From: a virus | Taxonomy: Duplodnaviria; Heunggongvirae; Uroviricota; Caudoviricetes | IMG/VR virus record: IMGVR_UViG_2740892489_000001 | Length of the DNA: 49,169 bases | Direction: 5' to 3' (one strand) | Part shown: positions 7,749 through 49,169 of the stretch, piece by piece | How positions within the stretch are numbered: position 1 is the first letter of the stretch | Layout of the letters: the number at the start of each line of letters is the position of its first letter | Made by a program: the position numbers and the translations under genes | The notes under the pieces: generated by a model | What the model was told of the DNA's origin: nothing | Seen by the model: only the letters and a program-made list of their open reading frames with translations | Databases searched by the model: none

Positions 7749-8171
7749 TTAAGAGGCTTTTTTGTTTTTTTCTTTCGTGCTAACTCTTCGTAAATTGCAT
7801 TGTACTTCTGTTTTTTTCTCCTCAAGAGTTTTTAAAAGTTCATCTGTCTCACTGTCAGGGAGCTCGTCCAGAAGGTCAATGATGATTTTTTGTCTTGGAT
7901 TTAACTCCTGATAGAAACGTATCTGTCCACTTTCTTCTGTATCCTCTCCCAAAAGATAGGTTGGTGTTGTTCCAATGAGTGTTGCTAATTCCCTTAATTT
8001 CTCTCGGCGAGGAATTGTTTCACCATTAAACCATTTGCTAACCGCTTTTGGTGTTAATTTCATTCGACGGGCAATTTCTGCCTGCCTTCCATGTTGTTCA
8101 TAACCAGCGTTTTCACAGGCTAGCGCAAGCCTACTGGCGAACTCTTTACGCGCTTTATCTTCATGAACCAT
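7749..8171 (-). CDS. racR: Prophage repressor, XRE-type HTH (RacR-like)
   Basis: HTH-like segment AEIARRMKLTPKAVSKWFNGETIP; divergent from the Cro-like gene; C-terminus passes two A7 runs so the exact end is uncertain. Confidence 0.7.
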   Translation of the reverse strand: MVHEDKARKEFASRLALACENAGYEQHGRQAEIARRMKLTPKAVSKWFNGETIPRREKLRELATLIGTTPTYLLGEDTEESGQIRFYQELNPRQKIIIDLLDELPDSETDELLKTLEEKKTEVQCNLRRVSTKEKNKKAS

Positions 8172-8250
8172 AAGTTCAATGATATTCGCTCTTGAATGTA
8201 CTGTCAGTTCTGTTATAGCATGTACTCAAAGTTCACATTGTGAGGATGAT
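8172..8250. promoter_or_regulatory. Divergent promoter/operator region between repressor and Cro-like gene
   Basis: AATGTACT (8195-8202) and CATGTACT (8219-8226); possible -35 TTGAAT / -10 TATAGC for the rightward gene. Confidence 0.4.
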
Positions 8251-8505
8251 ATGAACCAGAAAACACTTGAAGATGTAATCAAAACTGTTCGCGTTTCTGT
8301 TGTGGCCGACGTTTGTGGTGTCAGCCAAAGAGCAATCTACAAATGGATGGATAACGGAAAATTGCCTCGCACAGAATATACCGGCGAAACAAATTACGCT
8401 GAAAAAATCGCTCATGCATCAAACGGATTATTTTCTGCCGATGCAATTTTAACTATTGGCAGAAATAAAACTACTACGAAAAAGCTGATGGGAGTTGATT
8501 CATGA
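8251..8505 (+). CDS. Cro/YdaS-like HTH protein
   Basis: MNQKTLEDVIKTVRVSVVADVCGVSQRAIYKWM HTH; GAGGA Shine-Dalgarno before ATG 8251. Confidence 0.6.
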   Translation: MNQKTLEDVIKTVRVSVVADVCGVSQRAIYKWMDNGKLPRTEYTGETNYAEKIAHASNGLFSADAILTIGRNKTTTKKLMGVDS

Positions 8506-8924
8506 AAATCAAGCATGAGCACATCGAATCAGTGTTGTTAGCCCTGGCAGCCGAAAAAGGGCAGGCGTGGGTCGCTAACGCAATTACTGAAGAATATCTG
8601 CACCAGGGGGGCGGCGAATTGCCCCTGGTACCAGGCAAGGACTGGAACAATCAGCAGAATATCTATCATCGTTGGTTGAAAGGTGAAACGAATGCGCAAA
8701 GGGAAAAAATTCAGAAACTGATCCCTGCGGTTCTGGCAATTCTTCCTCGCGAGCTGCGTCACCGACTCTGCATCTTCGATACCTTGGAACGCCGTGCATT
8801 ACTGGCGGCACAGGATGCACTGAGTACGGCAATTGATGCGCATGATGATGCAGTCCAGGCCGTTTACCGTAAAGCACATTTCAGCGGCGGCGGTTCTCCT
8901 AGCGATTCTGTCGTAGTGCATTGA
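8502..8924 (+). CDS. YdaT-like (CII-position) regulatory protein
   Basis: 140-aa ORF overlapping the upstream stop (ATGA); position as ydaT in Rac. Confidence 0.5.
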   Translation: MKIKHEHIESVLLALAAEKGQAWVANAITEEYLHQGGGELPLVPGKDWNNQQNIYHRWLKGETNAQREKIQKLIPAVLAILPRELRHRLCIFDTLERRALLAAQDALSTAIDAHDDAVQAVYRKAHFSGGGSPSDSVVVH

Positions 8925-39747: not shown

Positions 39748-42700
39748 ATGGGTAAAGGCAGCAGTAAGGGGCATACCCCGCGCGAAGCGAAGGACAACCT
39801 GAAATCCACGCAGTTGCTGAGTGTGATTGATGCCATCAGTGAAGGGCCGATTGAAGGTCCGGTGGATGGATTAAAAAGCGTGCTGCTGAACAGTACGCCG
39901 GTGCTGGACAGTGAGGGGAATACCAACATCGTCGGTGTCACGGTGGTGTTCCGGGCTGGTGAGCAGGAGCAGACTCCGCCGGAGGGATTTGAATCCTCCG
40001 GCTCCGAGACGGTGCTGGGTACGGAAGTGAAATACGACACGCCGATCACCCGCACCATCACGTCGGCAAACATCGACCGACTGCGCTTTACCTTCGGTGT
40101 GCAGGCACTGGTGGAAACCACCTCAAAGGGGGACCGGAATCCGTCGGAAGTTCGCCTGCTGGTTCAGATACAACGTAACGGTGGCTGGGTGACGGAAAAA
40201 GACATCACCATTAAGGGCAAAACCACCTCGCAGTATCTGGCCTCGGTGGTGGTGGATAACCTGCCGCCGCGCCCGTTTAATATCCGGATGCGCAGAATGA
40301 CGCCGGACAGCACCACAGACCAGCTGCAGAACAAAACGCTCTGGTCGTCATACACCGAAATCATCGATGTGAAACAGTGCTACCCGAACACGGCACTGGT
40401 CGGCGTGCAGGTGGATTCGGAGCAGTTCGGCAGCCAGCAGGTGAGCCGTAATTATCATCTGCGCGGGCGCATTCTGCAGGTGCCGTCGAACTATAACCCG
40501 CAGACGCGGCAATACAGCGGTATCTGGGACGGAACGTTTAAGCCAGCATACAGCAACAACATGGCCTGGTGTCTGTGGGATATGCTGACCCATCCGCGCT
40601 ACGGCATGGGGAAACGTCTTGGTGCGGCGGATGTGGACAAATGGGCGCTGTATGTCATCGGCCAGCATTGCGATCAGTCGGTGCCGGACGGTTTTGGCGG
40701 CACGGAGCCGCGCATCACCTGTAATGCGTACCTGACCACACAGCGCAAGGCGTGGGATGTGCTCAGTGATTTCTGCTCTGCGATGCGCTGTATGCCGGTA
40801 TGGAACGGGCAGACGCTGACGTTCGTGCAGGACCGACCGTCGGATAAGGTGTGGACCTATAACCGCAGTAATGTGGTGATGCCGGATGATGGTGCGCCGT
40901 TCCGCTACAGCTTCAGCGCCCTGAAGGACCGCCATAATGCCGTTGAGGTGAACTGGATTGACCCGAATAACGGCTGGGAGACGGCGACAGAGCTTGTGGA
41001 GGACACGCAGTCCATTGCCCGTTACGGTCGTAACGTCACGAAGATGGATGCTTTTGGCTGTACCAGCCGGGGGCAGGCACACCGCGCCGGGCTGTGGCTG
41101 ATTAAAACAGAACTGCTGGAAACGCAGACCGTGGACTTCAGCGTGGGTGCCGAAGGGCTTCGCCATGTACCGGGCGATGTCATTGAAATCTGCGATGATG
41201 ACTATGCCGGTATCCGCACCGGCGGGCGCGTGCTGGCGGTAAACAGCCAGACCCGGACGCTGACGCTCGACCGTGAAATCACGCTGCCATCTTCCGGCAC
41301 CACGCTGATAAGCCTGGTTGACGGGCAGGGGAGTCCGGTCAGCGTGGAGGTTCAGTCCGTCACCGACGGCGTGAAGGTGAAAGTGAGCCGTGTTCCTGAC
41401 GGCGTTGCTGAATACAGCGTATGGGGGCTGAAGCTGCCGACGCTGCGCCAGCGCCTGTTCCGCTGCGTGAGTATCCGTGAGAACGACGACGGCACGTATG
41501 CCATCACCGCCGTGCAGCATGTACCGGAAAAAGAGGCCATCGTGGATAACGGGGCGCACTTTGACGGCGACCAGAGCGGCACGGTAAATGGTGTCACGCC
41601 GCCAGCGGTGCAGCACCTGACCGCAGAAGTCACCGCAGACAGCGGGGAATACCAGGTGCTGGCCCGCTGGGACACGCCGAAGGTGGTGAAGGGCGTGAGC
41701 TTCCTGCTTCGCCTGACCGTGGCAGCGGATGACGGCCGTGAGCGGCTGGTCAGCACGGCCCGGACGACGGAAACCACTTACCGCTTCACACAACTGGCTC
41801 TGGGGAACTACAGGCTGACAGTCCGGGCAGTAAATGCGTGGGGGCAGCAGGGCGATCCGGCGTCGGTATCGTTCCGGATTGCCGCACCGGCAGCGCCGTC
41901 GCGGATTGAGCTGACGCCGGGCTATTTTCAGATAACCGCCACGCCGCATCTTGCGGTTTATGACCCGACGGTACAGTTTGAGTTCTGGTTCTCGGAAAAA
42001 CGGATTGCGGATATCAGGCAGGTTGAAACCAGCGCGCGTTATCTTGGTACGGCACTGTACTGGATAGCCGCCAGTATCAATATCAAACCGGGCCATGATT
42101 ATTATTTTTACGTTCGCAGTGTGAACACCGTTGGCAAATCGGCATTCGTGGAGGCTGTCGGCCAGCCGAGTGATGATGCATCAGGCTATCTGGATTTTTT
42201 CAAAGGCGAGATAGGGAAAACCCATCTGGCTCAGGAGCTGTGGACGCAGATTGATAACGGTCAGCTTGCGCCTGACCTGGCTGAAATCAGGACGTCCATT
42301 ACGGATGTCAGCAATGAAATCACACAGACCGTCAATAAGAAACTGGAAGACCAGAGTGCAGCGATCCAGCAGATACAGAAGGTTCAGGTTGATACAAATA
42401 ATAATCTGAACAGCATGTGGGCTGTGAAGCTGCAACAGATGAAGGACGGACGCCTTTATATTGCGGGTATCGGTGCCGGTATTGAGAATACGCCAGCAGG
42501 AATGCAGAGTCAGGTGCTGCTGGCGGCAGACAGGATTGCGATGATTAATCCTGCGAATGGCAACACAAAACCGATGTTTGTTGGTCAGGGTGATCAGATA
42601 TTCATGAATGAAGTGTTCCTGAAGCGCCTGACGGCCCCCACCATTACCAGCGGCGGCAATCCTCCGGCCTTTTCCCTGACACCGGACGGAAAGCTGACCG

Positions 42701-43227
42701 CTAAAAATGCGGATATCAGTGGCAGTGTGAATGCGAACTCCGGGACGCTCAACAACGTTACGATAAATGAGAACTGTCAGATTAAAGGGAAACTGTCAGC
42801 CAACCAGATTGAAGGCGATATTGTCAAAACAGTGGGTAAGGCTTTCCCGCGGGACTCCCGGGCACCGGAGCGGTGGCCATCAGGAACCATTACCGTCAGG
42901 ATTTATGACGATCAGCCGTTTGACCGGCAGATTGTTATTCCGGCGGTGGCATTCAGCGGTGCTAAACATGAGAGAGAGCATACTGATATTTACTCCTCAT
43001 GCCGCCTGATAGTGAAGAAAAATGGTGCTGAAATTTATAACCGTACCGCGCTGGATAATACGCTGATTTACAGTGGTGTTATTGATATGCCAGCTGGTCA
43101 CGGCCACATGACGCTGGAGTTTTCGGTGTCAGCATGGCTGGTAAATGACTGGTATCCCACAGCAAGTATCAGCGATTTGCTGGTTGTGGTGATGAAGAAA
43201 GCCACCGCAGGCATCAGTATCAGCTGA
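39748..43227 (+). CDS. Host specificity / central tail fibre protein J
   Basis: 1159 aa, immediately after I. Confidence 0.9.
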
Positions 43228-43246
43228 ATTTTATAACCCATATACG

Positions 43247-43270
43247 GGCGCCAGAAATGGCGCCTTTTTT
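43247..43270 (+). terminator. Rho-independent terminator after J
   Basis: GGCGCC-AGAAAT-GGCGCC followed by T6. Confidence 0.6.
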
Positions 43271-43294
43271 ATTGCAGAAAAGCGAGAGGTAATT

Positions 43295-43893
43295 ATGCGT
43301 AAAGTTTGTGCAGCCATTTTGTCCGCAGCCATCTGTCTGGCCGTATCCGGTGCGCCTGCATGGGCGTCTGAGCAGCAGGCCACACTGAGCGCAGGGTATC
43401 TTCATGCCCGTACGAACGCTCCCGGCAGCGATAATCTGAACGGGATTAACGTGAAATACCGTTATGAGTTTACGGACACGCTGGGGCTGATTACGTCATT
43501 CAGTTATGCCAACGCTGAAGATGAGCAAAAACGCATTACAGCGATACCCGCTGGCATGAGGATTCCGTGCGTAATCGCTGGTTCAGCGTGATGGCGGGGC
43601 CGTCTGTGCGCGTGAATGAATGGTTCAGCGCGTATGCGATGGCGGGTATGGCTTACAGCCGTGTGTCGACTTTCTCCGGGGATTATATCCGCGTAACTGA
43701 CAACAAGGGGAAAACGCACGATGTGCTGACCGGAAGTGATGACGGTCGCCACAGCAACACGTCTCTGGCGTGGGGAGCTGGCGTGCAGTTTAACCTGACC
43801 GAATCGGTGGCCATTGATATTGCTTATGAAGGCTCCGGCAGTGGTGACTGGCGCACTGACGGTTTCATCGTGGGTGTCGGTTATAAATTCTGA
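43295..43893 (+). CDS. lom: Lom-family outer membrane protein; frame broken at A5 run 43527-43531
   Basis: Signal peptide MRKVCAAILSAAICLAVSGAPAWA; C-terminal ORF 43567..43893 (...SVMAGPSVRVNEWF...GVGYKF) joins with one extra A. Confidence 0.85.
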
Positions 43894-43920
43894 TTAGCCA
43901 GGTAACACAGTGTTATGACA

Positions 43921-43946
43921 GCCCGCCGGTTCAGGCGGGCTTTTTT
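43921..43946 (+). terminator. Rho-independent terminator after lom
   Basis: GCCCGCC-GGTTCAG-GCGGGC followed by T6. Confidence 0.65.
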
Positions 43947-43957
43947 GTGGGGTGAAT

Positions 43958-46900
43958 ATGGCAGTAAAGATTTCAGGTGTACTGAAAGACGGTGCAGGTA
44001 AACCGGTACAGAACTGCACAATCCAGCTGAAAGCAAAACGTAACAGCACCACGGTGGTGGTGAACACGCTGGCCTCAGAAAATCCGGATGAAGCCGGGCG
44101 TTACAGCATGGACGTTGAGTACGGGCAGTACAGCGTTATTCTGTTGGTGGAGGGATTCCCGCCGTCACATGCCGGGACCATCACCGTGTATGAAGATTCC
44201 CGACCCGGTACGCTGAATGATTTTCTCGGTGCCATGACGGAGGATGATGCCCGTCCTGAGGCACTGCGCCGTTTTGAACTGATGGTGGAAGAGGTGGCGC
44301 GTAACGCGTCCGCGGTGGCACAGAACACGGCAGCCGCGAAGAAGTCAGCCAGCGATGCCGGCACATCAGCCCGTGAGGCGGCAACCCATGCGACTGATGC
44401 TGCAGGCTCAGCACGCGCAGCCAGCACGTCAGCCGGACAGGCCGCTTCGTCGGCTCAGTCAGCGTCTTCCAGCGCAGGAACGGCATCAACAAAGGCCACT
44501 GAAGCATCGAAAAGTGCTGCTGCTGCAGAGTCCTCAAAAAGCGCGGCAGCTACCAGTGCCAGTGCCGCGAAAACGTCAGAAACGAATGCGGCAGCGTCAC
44601 AAAAATCTGCAGCCACTTCTGCATCCGCCGCGACCACGAAGGCGTCAGAAGCTGCCACCTCAGCCCGGGATGCGGCGGCCTCAAAAGAGGCAGCGAAATC
44701 ATCAGAAACGAACGCATCATCAAGCGCCAGTAGTGCCGCTTCCTCGGCAACGGCGGCAGGCAATTCCGCGAAGGCGGCAAAGACGTCTGAGACAAACGCC
44801 AGGTCTTCTGAAACGGCAGCGGGACAGAGCGCCTCGGCTGCGGCAGGCTCAAAAACAGCGGCTGCGTCGTCTGCCAGTGCCGCGTCAACAAGTGCCGGGC
44901 AGGCCTCAGCCAGTGCCACCGCCGCCGGAAAATCGGCAGAAAGTGCCGCATCGTCTGCTTCAACAGCCACAACGAAGGCTGGCGAAGCCACTGAACAGGC
45001 CAGCGCAGCAGCGAGGTCTGCTTCCGCAGCGAAGACATCCGAGACGAACGCGAAAGCGTCGGAAACCAGCGCAGAATCCTCAAAAACGGCTGCCGCATCG
45101 TCCGCCAGTTCGGCGGCGTCATCGGCATCATCGGCGTCTGCTTCAAAAGATGAGGCGACCAGACAGGCGTCAGCAGCGAAGGGCAGCGCCACGACGGCAT
45201 CCACGAAGGCGACAGAGGCAGCTGGCAGTGCGACGGCGGCAGCTCAGAGCAAAAGTACGGCGGAATCCGCGGCAACGCGCGCCGAGACAGCGGCAAAACG
45301 GGCAGAGGATATTGCATCCGCCGTGGCGCTTGAGGATGCGAGCACGACGAAAAAGGGGATAGTACAGCTCAGCAGTGCGACCAACAGTACGTCTGAAACG
45401 CTGGCGGCAACGCCAAAGGCAGTAAAAGCAGCCTATGACAATGCAGAGAAACGTCTGCAGAAAGACCAGAACGGTGCTGATATTCCCGACAAGGACCGCT
45501 TCCTGAGTAACATTAATGTTTACAGCAAAGGTGAAGTGGATCAGAAAAAGGGGATGCGATACGTTGTGGTAAATGCCCCGGCGGGTGTCCAGGAAGGTAA
45601 ATATTATCCGTTAGTGATAAAAAGGAATGACAGCCATCGGGCATCCCGCGTTGTCATTTCAACGCCAAGTCGCTCAGCTAATCACAGAATGAATAATTGT
45701 GAGTTTAATGGTTTTGTTTGCGCAGGCGGCTGGACGGACCGGGGTAGCTATGCCTGTGGTATGTTCTGGGCTTATTCAACATCGGAACGCGCTATTCATT
45801 CCATTCTGATGAGTAATAAAGGCGATACCGTAGACAGCGTATTCTATATAGAAGGTGGGGCATTTCCCGTAGAGGTCTTTTTAGAAGAAGGTCTCTCCGT
45901 TACTGCACCTGCTTCTGATTATATTGTTGCTGAAACGACTTATAAATTTGGCGCAACTGATCCTTATTCTGAATCAGTTGCGGTAAATTTAATTTTAGAT
46001 TTTAAACAAGGTAATGGATTTTATAGTTCGTATCCTGTTTTGAGTAAGTCAGACATTAGCGGGAATAAGATTTACGCTAATGATGAAGTTATTGTCCGTA
46101 GTCAGAACGCGTTAAGGATGATTGCAGGTGATTACGGTGTCATATGGCGAAATGATGGAGCAAATACTTACTTGCTCATGACTGATAAAGGCGACCAGTA
46201 CGGTGGCTGGAACGGTCTTCGACCATTTGCAGTAAATAACGCAACAGGTGAAGTGACGATCAATACACCACTTAATTCTCCTAAGGGGATTAAGGGAAAT
46301 TCTGATACAGCTACGAAACTTCAGACAGCAATAAAAATATCTGGTGTTTCGTTTGATGGTTCTACTGATATCACTTTAACCGCTGCGCATGTTGCTGCTT
46401 TTGCCAGAAGAGCAACGGATACGTATGCCGATGCGGATGGGGGCGTTCCATGGAATGCCGAATCAGGCGCTTACAATGTCACCCGCTCTGGCGACAGCTA
46501 TATTCTGGTTAACTTCTATACCGGAGTCGGAAGTTGCCGGACCTTGCAGATGAAGGCACATTACAGAAATGGAGGTCTGTTCTACCGTTCCTCAAGAGAT
46601 GGCTATGGTTTTGAGGAAGACTGGGCAGAAGTTTATACCTCGAAAAATCTTCCACCAGAAAGCTACCCAGTCGGCGCACCAATCCCGTGGCCATCAGATA
46701 CCGTTCCGTCTGGTTATGCCCTGATGCAGGGGCAGGCTTTTGACAAATCTGCATACCCGAAACTTGCAGCGGCTTATCCGTCAGGCGTGATCCCTGATAT
46801 GCGTGGCTGGACGATTAAGGGCAAACCTGCCAGTGGTCGGGCCGTATTGTCTCAGGAACAGGACGGCATTAAATCGCATACCCACAGCGCCAGCGCATCC

Positions 46901-47353
46901 AGTACGGATTTGGGGGCGAAAACCACATCGTCGTTTGATTACGGCACTAAATCCACGAATAACACTGGTGCGCATACCCATAGTTTAAGTGGCAGCACGA
47001 ATGCAGCTGGTAATCACAGCCATAGAGATGGCCGTCGATTTAACCCCAGTGTTTTTAAAGATACTTATCAATATGGTTATACAAGCTCAGGTCAAAATAC
47101 CTGGGGTGTACAAGGCTCAGTAGGTATGTCTACGGGGTGGTTAGCTAATACCAGTACAGATGGTAATCATAGCCACTCACTGTCCGGCACAGCAGCATCT
47201 GCAGGTGCACACGCGCATACTGTCGGTATTGGTGCTCATACGCACTCCGTTGCGATTGGTTCACATGGACACACCATCACCGTTAACGCTGCTGGTAACG
47301 CGGAAAACACCGTCAAAAACATCGCATTTAACTATATTGTGAGGCTTGCATAA
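43958..47353 (+). CDS. Side tail fibre protein (Stf-like)
   Basis: [28 protein letters not shown]-terminus, long Ala/Ser/Thr repeat region, His-rich C-terminus (HTHS, HSHS, HAHT). Confidence 0.85.
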
Positions 47354-47930
47354 TGGCATTCAGAATGAGTGAACAACCACGGACCATAAAAATTTATAAT
47401 CTGCTGGCCGGAACTAATGAATTTATTGGTGAAGGTGACGCATATATTCCGCCTCATACAGGTCTGCCAGCAAACAGTACCGATATTGCACCACCAGATA
47501 TTCCTGCTGGCTTTGTGGCTGTTTTCAACAGTGATGAGGCATCGTGGCATCTCGTTGAAGACCATCGGGGTAAAACGGTTTATGACGTAGCGTCAGGGGA
47601 CGAGTTATTTATTTCTGAACTCGGTCCGTTACCGGAAAATGTTACCTGGTTATCGCCGGAAGGGGAGTTTCAGAAGTGGAACGGCACAGCCTGGGTGAAG
47701 GATACGGAAGCAGAAAAAACTGTTCCGGATCCGGGAGGCGGAAGAAACAAAAAAACAACCTGATGCAGGTAGCCAGTGAGCATATTGCGCCGCTTCAGGA
47801 TGCTGCAGATCTGGAAATTGCAACGGAGGAAGAAATCTCGTTGCTGGAAGCATGGAAAAAGTATCGGGTATTGCTGAACCGTGTTGATACGTCAACTTCA
47901 CAGGATATTGAATGGCCAGCACTGCCGTAG
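47353..47930 (+). CDS. Tail fibre assembly protein (Tfa-like); frame broken at A6 47714-47719 and A7 47749-47755
   Basis: [37 protein letters not shown]... then C-terminal [21 protein letters not shown]... in ORF 47676..47930. Confidence 0.8.
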
Positions 47931-48028
47931 GGTAAAACATATAAATTCTATAATTAGATGTATCTTTCCATTTACGGCAAGGAAGGGGGCTTGGAAGACG
48001 TAAAGCATCTCACACCGAGATTATTTTT

Positions 48029-48619
48029 TTATATGTCAGGTGTCTGAAGTTTTGCTTTGGCTCTTAAAATGGTTTGCCGCGAGGTTTTGAATTCCCGGGC
48101 AATGGCACTTATACTTACACCTGACTTAATTCGTTCGAATACCACCTGTTTCTGTTCTTCATTTAACACAGGTGGTCGACCAAAACGTTTCCCTGCGCCG
48201 CGGGCTCTTACTATCCCGGAATGAGTGCGTTCAAGTAAAAGGTCTCGTTCAAATTCAGCGACTGCTGAAATTACTTGCATCATCATTTTTCCTGTTGGAC
48301 TGGTCAGGTCAATGCCCCCCAATGCTAAGCAATGCACTCTGATACCTGTTTCGGTCAGTTGTTCCACTGTTTTCCTGATATCCATTGCATTACAACCAAG
48401 GCGATCCAGTTTTGTCACAATCAATTGATCACCACATTTCAGGCGAGCAAGCAACCGGTTAAAACCAGGACGCTCACTGGTTGCTGCTGAGCCGCTAATG
48501 TGTTCTTCGATTATTTGCTGAGGTTTGATTTTAAAACCTGCACTTTCGATTTCCCGGCGTTGATTTTCGGTGGTCTGATCCAGCGTTGATATCCGACAGT
48601 AAGCAAAAATTCGAGACAT
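48029..48619 (-). CDS. pin: Serine recombinase, Pin/Gin/Hin-type DNA invertase
   Basis: [20 protein letters not shown] catalytic Ser motif and C-terminal HTH, 196 aa. Confidence 0.9.
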
Positions 48620-48935
48620 AGTGAGACTCTATACGAAATTGGTGTTCATATCATAATGCATCTCAGAAAATAATTATGATTATTTTTGTGCATATTTGTA
48701 TGTACACGTTCGAAAATAAACGAATGCGTATGCAACCCCGTAATTTTGGTGAGACCCAAAATCGATTTTGTGAAAAATGGCTTTAACTCGGTTTGTTTTT
48801 CGAGTTCCGGGCGGACTCAAGGAAGAAGAATAGTGTTGCGTGTTATTTTAACCAGATTTCAAGTTGTTTGGTCGTGGAAAAGTGGAGCAAAATGTTGTTA
48901 AAGTGGAAAAATGATAAAAAAGTAAGTTTATTATA

Positions 48936-49169
48936 TTACATTTTACCATTTAAATTTTGGTTGTCTTTAAGAACTGATATCGCTGTTTGTAATAATTCTT
49001 TGTTATCCAGCCATGATTTTTTCTTTATGTTTCCTTCAATGTAATCAAGCAATGTTCTGGTATTGATAGGTCTTCCCTGTTTTGCTACTTCCACTACAGC
49101 ATCCCCTAGGATAATTCTTACTTCAGGAAGCTGCGCAGGGAACCACTTTAGGGTGTCTTTTGATTTCAT
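48936..49169 (-). CDS. Small prophage protein (YnaE-like)
   Basis: 77-aa ORF whose ATG is the last three bases of the window. Confidence 0.45.
   Translation of the reverse strand: MKSKDTLKWFPAQLPEVRIILGDAVVEVAKQGRPINTRTLLDYIEGNIKKKSWLDNKELLQTAISVLKDNQNLNGKM

Follow-up and report, generated by a model that had tools for sequence, protein, structure and literature searches.

The pinR gene beside stf and tfa in a Rac-type prophage is probably the resolvase gene of an internally deleted Tn3-family transposon

The pinR gene that lies beside the tail-fibre genes stf and tfa of a Rac-type lambdoid prophage is very probably the tnpR gene of a Tn3-family transposon that was inserted once, is internally deleted and is non-autonomous. 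This element spans positions 47985-48819 (approximately 835 bp) of the window, by which the whole analysed stretch of 49,169 nucleotides is meant, and is arranged in the order AGGAA, IRR, tnpR (pinR), res subsites III, II and I, approximately 45 bp of the tnpA 3' end, IRL and AGGAA. In the original prediction, the gene is described as an intact Pin invertase with no obvious invertible segment, which may act in trans or be a remnant. The observations behind this description are partly confirmed and its interpretation is partly supported: a remnant is present, but it appears to be that of a Tn3-family transposon without its transposase, not that of an inversion switch without its cassette. pinR and pinQ are long-standing genes of E. 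coli K-12, which are annotated as Pin-type invertases and are present in about half of complete E. coli genomes. Their position inside a Tn3-family fossil would explain why no invertible segment lies beside them. The biology is ordinary, being that of a transposon fossil in a prophage, and the value of the result lies in the corrected annotation of a widespread and well-known E. coli gene.

The window closes, at its 3' end, with the last of the late genes of a Rac-type lambdoid prophage, namely J at 39748-43227, lom at 43295-43893 (split into two ORFs), stf at 43952-47353 and the tail fibre assembly gene tfa at 47353-47930 on the plus strand (Pfam Caudo_TAP on both ORF halves). tfa adjoins the element and is located outside it. 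pinR is located at 48029-48619 on the minus strand and encodes a protein of 196 aa with the Pfam domains Resolvase and HTH_7. The distance between the tfa stop at 47930 and pinR is 98 bp, as was stated originally. On the other side of the element, a gene of the ydfK/ynaE type (48936-49169, minus strand, 77 aa), assigned from the RefSeq annotation of homologous loci, belongs to the flanking b-region of the prophage and also lies outside the element. The same gene order is found beside uspF-ompN, the attachment region of Rac, in more than 2000 complete E. coli genomes. tfa is not intact in the window, because single A insertions at 47714 and 47749, as compared with the 98.7% identical sequence CP086391, divide it into two ORFs. 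Each of the four indels relative to CP086391, at 43527, 47714, 47749 and 48024, alters the length of an A or T homopolymer by one base, and together they break both lom and tfa into two ORFs. These breaks look like the result of long-read homopolymer error rather than like real pseudogenes. The sole match in the Rfam scan is a full-length match to IS009 (RF02111) at 47696-47896 on the plus strand, wholly within the 3' half of tfa, with 210 bits against a gathering score of 117.

The ends of the element are defined by two degenerate terminal inverted repeats and by a target-site duplication. The perfect 38-bp terminal repeats GGGGTCCGCTTGGAAAACGGAAAATATCCCACGCTAAG of an intact plasmid element were used as a reference for the inverted repeats. 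The repeat on the tnpR side, IRR, is located at 47985-48019 on the plus strand, directly after the pinR stop codon, and matches the reference at 27 of 38 positions. The repeat on the tnpA side, IRL, is located at 48781-48819 on the minus strand (reverse complement TGAGTCCGCCCGGAACTCGAAAAACAAACCGAGTTAAAG), matches at 25 of 38 positions and has the correct inward orientation. No other position of the window, on either strand, matches the reference as well as IRR, whose score of 41 exceeds the 36 that 2000 shuffled sequences reach at most, and the score of IRL taken alone only equals the best score of the shuffled sequences. The pentamer AGGAA is present at 47980-47984, where it abuts the outer GGGG of IRR, and at 48820-48824, where it abuts the tip of IRL. 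Both copies are perfect and are positioned exactly at the tips of the repeats, and a duplication of 5 bp is typical of the Tn3 family.

The intact plasmid element is a transposon of E. coli IncF plasmids, for example p2RM9088 (NZ_CP042297.1, 29.5-33.3 kb). It resembles the element of the window in its TnpR, which is 84% identical to PinR, in its DNA, which is 82% identical over tnpR, res II/III and the inverted repeat, and in the family of its 38-bp inverted repeats, which start with GGGG, the geometry of its res with the motif TGTMCGAAA and its divergent layout. The element of the window differs from it in that tnpA is deleted, the inverted repeats and res are decayed, Arg71 is replaced by Cys and the location is chromosomal and prophage-borne. 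In the blastn comparison, the similarity between the window (47989-48699) and the plasmid transposon (82% over 713 bp) stops at the terminus of the transposon and never enters tnpA. When the plasmid transposon is used as the query, approximately 2900 E. coli records, including those of K-12 strains, match its res-tnpR-IR portion only and never tnpA. What is left of tnpA is a stretch of approximately 45 bp inward of IRL (48733-48780, minus strand); its counterpart in the alignment is the part of the intact element next to IRL, where the tnpA gene has its 3' end. The transposase gene of roughly 3 kb is missing between this stretch and res site I, and no TnpA homology is detected by tblastn in the window or in the other prophage copies. 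Judged from its sequence, the element is a deleted, non-autonomous derivative and not a complete member of the Tn3 family. Tn5403 is only a candidate name for the plasmid transposon, for which a match to a Klebsiella plasmid and a literature search gave no confirmation. Annotation pipelines label the resolvase beside Tn5403 "pinR" (PMC13253593), which provides a lead. Such "pinR" labels on plasmid resolvases, which are really TnpR, are a warning for annotators. In the library that was searched, no paper that links pinR or pinQ to Tn3 was found.

The element recurs, as 834 bp with identical flanks, in the Rac prophage of K-12 (NC_000913, 1433041-1433874), in Qin-type copies, in Shigella and in phage HannyBb, which suggests a single ancestral insertion. 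We infer this insertion from the inverted repeats and the target duplication, because an empty site, in which the flanks are joined via a single AGGAA, is not found in 5426 E. coli genomes, the phage collection, or viral or metagenome contigs.

PinR of the window is 100% identical to E. coli K-12 PinR (b1374). "Pin invertase" is the name of this protein, not a demonstrated property of it, and its identity to PinE is only 38%. Similar identities (35-39%) are obtained with the Din-type invertases of the phages P1, D6, HK225 and P88. Din invertases are about 60-70% identical among themselves. PinR is predicted not to be an invertase of the Gin/Hin/Cin/Pin type. Its best sequence match in the PDB is Gin with 105 bits, as compared with 83 bits for gamma-delta resolvase, and no NCBIfam family reaches its cut-off. 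Relatives with identities of 57-93% are found by a scan with one genome per species and by a protein search. Resolvases encoded divergently to full-length Tn3-family transposases in Shewanella and other genera share 60-78% identity with PinR. The transposase beside the Shewanella relative (L013) consists of Pfam DUF4158 and DDE_Tnp_Tn3, and DUF4158 N-termini are encoded beside a PinR relative at two further loci (L016 and L019). In the complete IR-tnpA-res-tnpR-IR element of the E. coli IncF plasmids, the neighbour of tnpR is annotated in RefSeq as "Tn3 family transposase". By descent, pinR would be the gene of a transposon cointegrate resolvase and not that of a tail-fibre invertase.

The Din invertases (PinE of the e14 P segment, Gin of the Mu G segment, Cin of the P1 C segment, and Hin) resemble PinR in that they are small serine recombinases with Resolvase and HTH_7 domains and are encoded beside tail-fibre genes. 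These similarities raise the question of whether pinR is the invertase left behind by a decayed tail-fibre switch, like the Mu G or e14 P segment, that has lost its cassette and its crossover sites. The position of pinR beside stf/tfa, its historical name "pin" and the higher PDB score of Gin are consistent with such an origin. However, in the Din systems two inverted 26-bp crossover sites with the core AAACC-NN-GGTTT flank a segment by the gene, and the pinR locus is without them. The pinR locus also differs from the Din systems in its low protein identity, the absence of an inverted cassette, the opposite orientation of the gene relative to the fibre genes and the recognition helix; pinR points towards tfa, whereas pinE points away from its segment. 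The clade of PinR has a res array, whereas Din invertases have single crossover sites.

The absence of an inverted alternative tail-fibre cassette, which had been reported before, holds for both strands of the 49-kb window, in which tblastn with the Stf C-terminus and Tfa detects only the genes themselves. Long inverted repeats are not present in 43000-49169. The inverted pairs around stf/tfa/pin are only short and of low identity, and one AT-rich 16-nt pair that flanks pinR (48020-35 and 48659-74, 81%) is judged to be due to chance. A search of the whole genome for gix/cix-like sites was suggested in the original prediction. AAACCNNGGTTT with at most one mismatch gives 2 matches against 1.8 expected, neither of them near stf/tfa/pin, and the full 26-mer Din-type crossover site with at most 3 mismatches gives 0 matches, whereas the pix sites of e14, which served as a positive control, are recovered. 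Paired crossover sites that flank the C-terminal part of stf and tfa, which would have spoken against the absence of an invertible segment, are not found, and no remnants of crossover sites are present in stf or after tfa.

Two small motifs that had been pointed out exist, but are accounted for otherwise. The weak crossover-like sequence CACCGAGATTATTTTTTT is located at 48013-48030, not near 47980-48000, and overlaps the pinR stop codon; it consists of the inner end of IRR, at the start of CACCGAG, and this stop codon, and is not a crossover site. The palindrome AATTTTGGTGAGACCCAAAATCG upstream of pinR is located at 48742-48764, within what is left of the tnpA 3' end and 9 bp past res site I. 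It is kept in all E. coli copies. As hairpins, both motifs are unremarkable (z between -0.5 and -1.7), and a role of either as a terminator or RNA structure was rejected, because the hairpins are not significant.

The similarity of phage HannyBb (L003) to the window covers 47819-49169 and begins 112 bp before the tfa stop, and the tail-fibre genes of this phage are unrelated. A recombination breakpoint apparently lies inside tfa, so that HannyBb keeps a 3' stub of tfa beside the element. The presence of the element beside unrelated tail-fibre genes indicates that its link to stf/tfa is positional, not functional. Together with the location of the gene between transposon inverted repeats and target duplications and with the DNA identity to the plasmid transposon, this arrangement already contradicts the derivation of pinR from a Din-type switch, which is extremely improbable. 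If pinR belongs to a Tn3-family fossil instead, it adjoins stf/tfa by an accident of the insertion site, and consequently an invertible segment is neither expected nor found.

The res array of the element was compared with those of seven relatives, in which half-sites of the form TGTMCGAAA occur at fixed positions within 120 bp upstream of the gene: site I at -115/-98 (9+8+9 bp), site II at -75/-52 (9+14+9 bp) and site III at -34/-21. Such an array, from which tnpA and tnpR diverge, is the classic form of a res with three subsites. The res of the window aligns with it column for column and has a half-site at each of the six positions, but decay has affected five of these. Subsite III (48630-48651, minus strand) contains the sole near-consensus half-site, its right half TATACGAAA at 48630-48638, which scores 12.4 of a maximum of 15.2 bits with the position weight matrix, and its other half scores 0.2 bits. 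Subsite II (48661-48692, minus strand) consists of the halves TGCACAAAA and TCTCAGAAA, separated by a spacer of 14 bp, with scores of 4.9 and 2.6 bits. Subsite I (48707-48732, minus strand), which is the crossover site in the functional relatives (9+8+9 bp), contains 6 mismatches in 18 half-site positions and scores 1.9 and 7.4 bits. At the same half-site positions, intact transposons score 12-15 bits. A promoter-like sequence, TGTACA-16-AATAAT, runs on the minus strand from 48706 to 48679, where it overlaps the left half of site II and reaches the edge of site I. A second res or a site-I-like sequence is not found elsewhere in the window, and single half-sites occur across the window at chance frequency only. 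In Erwinia oleae (L017, 1271-2649), two PinR-like tnpR genes in head-to-head order are separated by two complete res arrays placed back to back, and tnpA is absent from their vicinity; such an arrangement is unusual for Tn3-family resolvases.

The claim that the invertase is intact holds for the ORF, which is an uninterrupted serine-recombinase frame of 196 aa, but not for the active site, in which one of the six most critical residues is substituted. In HMMER alignments to solved structures, the residue that corresponds to Cys76 of PinR is Arg71 in gamma-delta/Tn3 resolvase and is likewise Arg in Gin. The critical residues considered were Y6, R8, S10, D36, R68 and R71 of Tn3 resolvase. PinR has Y7, R9, S11 and R73; E39, which is typical of its clade, replaces D36; and Cys76 replaces R71. 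The codon of Ser11 is located at 48587-48589 and that of Cys76 at 48392-48394 (ACA on the plus strand). Cys76 is present in every PinR/PinQ copy examined from E. coli, Shigella and phage. Among the 120 homologues listed (77-100% identity), the position of Arg71 is occupied by Arg in 112 and by Cys in 5, and the motif is unmatched in 3. A cluster of 374 member sequences from E. coli (P0009), 85% identical to PinR, also has Cys at this position (LDRLGCNPMDIS). Substitution of R71 of Tn3 resolvase by Ala or Lys results in no detectable recombination and in cleavage that is about 1000-fold slower, although the R71 mutants are described as "not inert" (PMC2794168). The recognition helix of PinR, SRQTILRA, is common to PinR and to active relatives with TGTMCGAAA sites and is unlike the Din helix. 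PinR probably folds and binds TGTMCGAAA-type DNA, because its helix-turn-helix is conserved with those of active relatives. In contrast, the recombination module looks inactive in cis, and inversion in cis is not expected, because res is present in a single copy, site I is badly degraded and Cys occupies the position of the catalytic Arg71.

Action in trans has been claimed in print for a protein identical to PinR of the window. According to Kirigo et al. (2025, NAR; PMC12529663), the e14 P segment is inverted by PinQ/PinR, whereby StfE2 is created and the adsorption of T2 is blocked. T2 resistance is reported there as a phenotype of PinQ, and PinR, with 99% identity, is treated as equivalent. 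By this account, PinR/PinQ would directly invert the e14 P segment in trans, and the gene would be kept in Rac-type prophages as the controller of an anti-phage switch. K-12 PinR (b1374, Rac) and PinQ (Qin) do not differ structurally from the element of the window; what differs is their interpretation, as a TnpR fossil or as an invertase that acts on e14. The published data in favour of inversion are that overproduction of PinQ increases the inverted fraction from 30% to 88%, that the P segment is inverted in T2 survivors, that the effect of PinQ is abolished in delta-stfP, delta-stfE and delta-e14 strains, and that pinQ/pinR transcripts increase 14-fold upon T2 infection (PMC12529663), and the complete identity of the window protein to K-12 PinR makes them applicable to it. 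However, in Table S4 of the same paper the inverted fraction is 1.5% in the delta-pinE strain despite the presence of pinQ and pinR, as compared with 22% in the delta-pinQ strain and 30% in the wild type (PMC12529663), which indicates that PinE carries out the inversion at native levels. The inverted fraction is 49% upon overproduction of PinE (PMC12529663), approximately the half-and-half distribution that we expect for a freely reversible switch, and we take the 88% obtained with PinQ as a sign of selection or of an indirect route. Neither an in vitro assay nor a mutant of the catalytic serine was found in the main text of PMC12529663.

The properties of PinR fit direct inversion of the P segment poorly as well. 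Its helix is of the TnpR type, the pix sites do not resemble TGTMCGAAA, no TGTMCGAAA half-sites are detected at the e14 pix sites or flanking the P segment, and Cys replaces the catalytic Arg71. In addition, the full e14 P segment is rare, being present in 284 of 5426 E. coli genomes, as compared with 2753 that contain pinR with res. PinR is unlikely to catalyse inversion at Din-type pix sites directly, and the account in which it controls an anti-phage switch in this way is improbable as a whole. With the catalytic arginine missing, there are concrete grounds for re-examining whether the e14 P segment is inverted by PinQ/PinR themselves, as was claimed in 2025.

A still-functional resolvase, which recombines its own res with that of another copy in Rac or Qin, in dimers of a replicating phage or in a related plasmid transposon, is a further candidate. 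The intact ORF, the conserved helix-turn-helix and the retained three-subsite geometry are in agreement with it, as are the presence of at least two pinR copies in many genomes, which occupy up to 6 places per genome, and of related intact transposons on E. coli plasmids. Nevertheless, the scores of both site I halves are very low and the equivalent of Arg71 is lost; the Rac and Qin copies are stably kept approximately 200 kb apart in many genomes (for example at L006 and L012); and Kirigo et al., who probed E. coli genomes with Rac and Qin sequences, detected inversions in e14 only (PMC12529663). An active resolvase is considered quite improbable, more so than direct inversion of the P segment.

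The reading of pinR as the tnpR of a transposon fossil leads to the following probable history. A Tn3-family element would have been inserted once, 54 bp downstream of tfa, in the b-region of an ancestral lambdoid phage. Its transposase would have been lost by internal deletion, the inverted repeats and res would have decayed, and the element would have travelled with the b-region module through Rac-type and Qin-type prophages and viable phages. At most, PinR may autoregulate its gene via the near-consensus half-site of site III, or act on related res sites on plasmids. A more far-reaching proposal, which we regard as speculative and rather unlikely, is that PinR/PinQ is a domesticated, catalytically crippled TnpR, which lambdoid phages maintain in over half of the E. 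coli genomes as a factor that binds DNA and does not recombine it, either as a repressor or dominant-negative subunit on incoming Tn5403-like res or as an indirect modulator of PinE switching. If it is correct, indirect modulation of PinE-driven switching of the P segment would explain the T2 phenotype without catalysis by PinQ. The fossil may also be compared with the TIMEs, Tn3-derived inverted-repeat miniature elements, which likewise have Tn3-type inverted repeats without a transposase and can in principle be mobilised only in trans (PMC4133298). The element of the window differs from the TIMEs in that it keeps tnpR and res, and its inverted repeats look too degenerate for mobilisation.

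More than 2700 genomes retain an uninterrupted pinR ORF with 99-100% identity, and PinR is equally conserved (99-100% identity) in 11 viable lambdoid phages. dN/dS relative to the plasmid tnpR is 0.15, a value that has little bearing on present-day constraint, because the prophage lineage is not separable in it. The nearly perfect conservation of the ORF and this ratio are compatible with a retained function, and also with a recent spread of the module. pinR does decay in some lineages: the second-locus pinR/pinQ copies of Shigella flexneri (L023) and E. coli ECGI0523 (L024), at 8001-8590, are riddled with frameshifts and stop codons. Three short contigs of metagenome-assembled genomes labelled Alistipes, Draconibacterium and Caldithrix (L005, L008 and L009) encode PinR with 99-100% identity and contain the upstream palindrome of E. 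coli; they are probably mis-binned E. coli or phage DNA.
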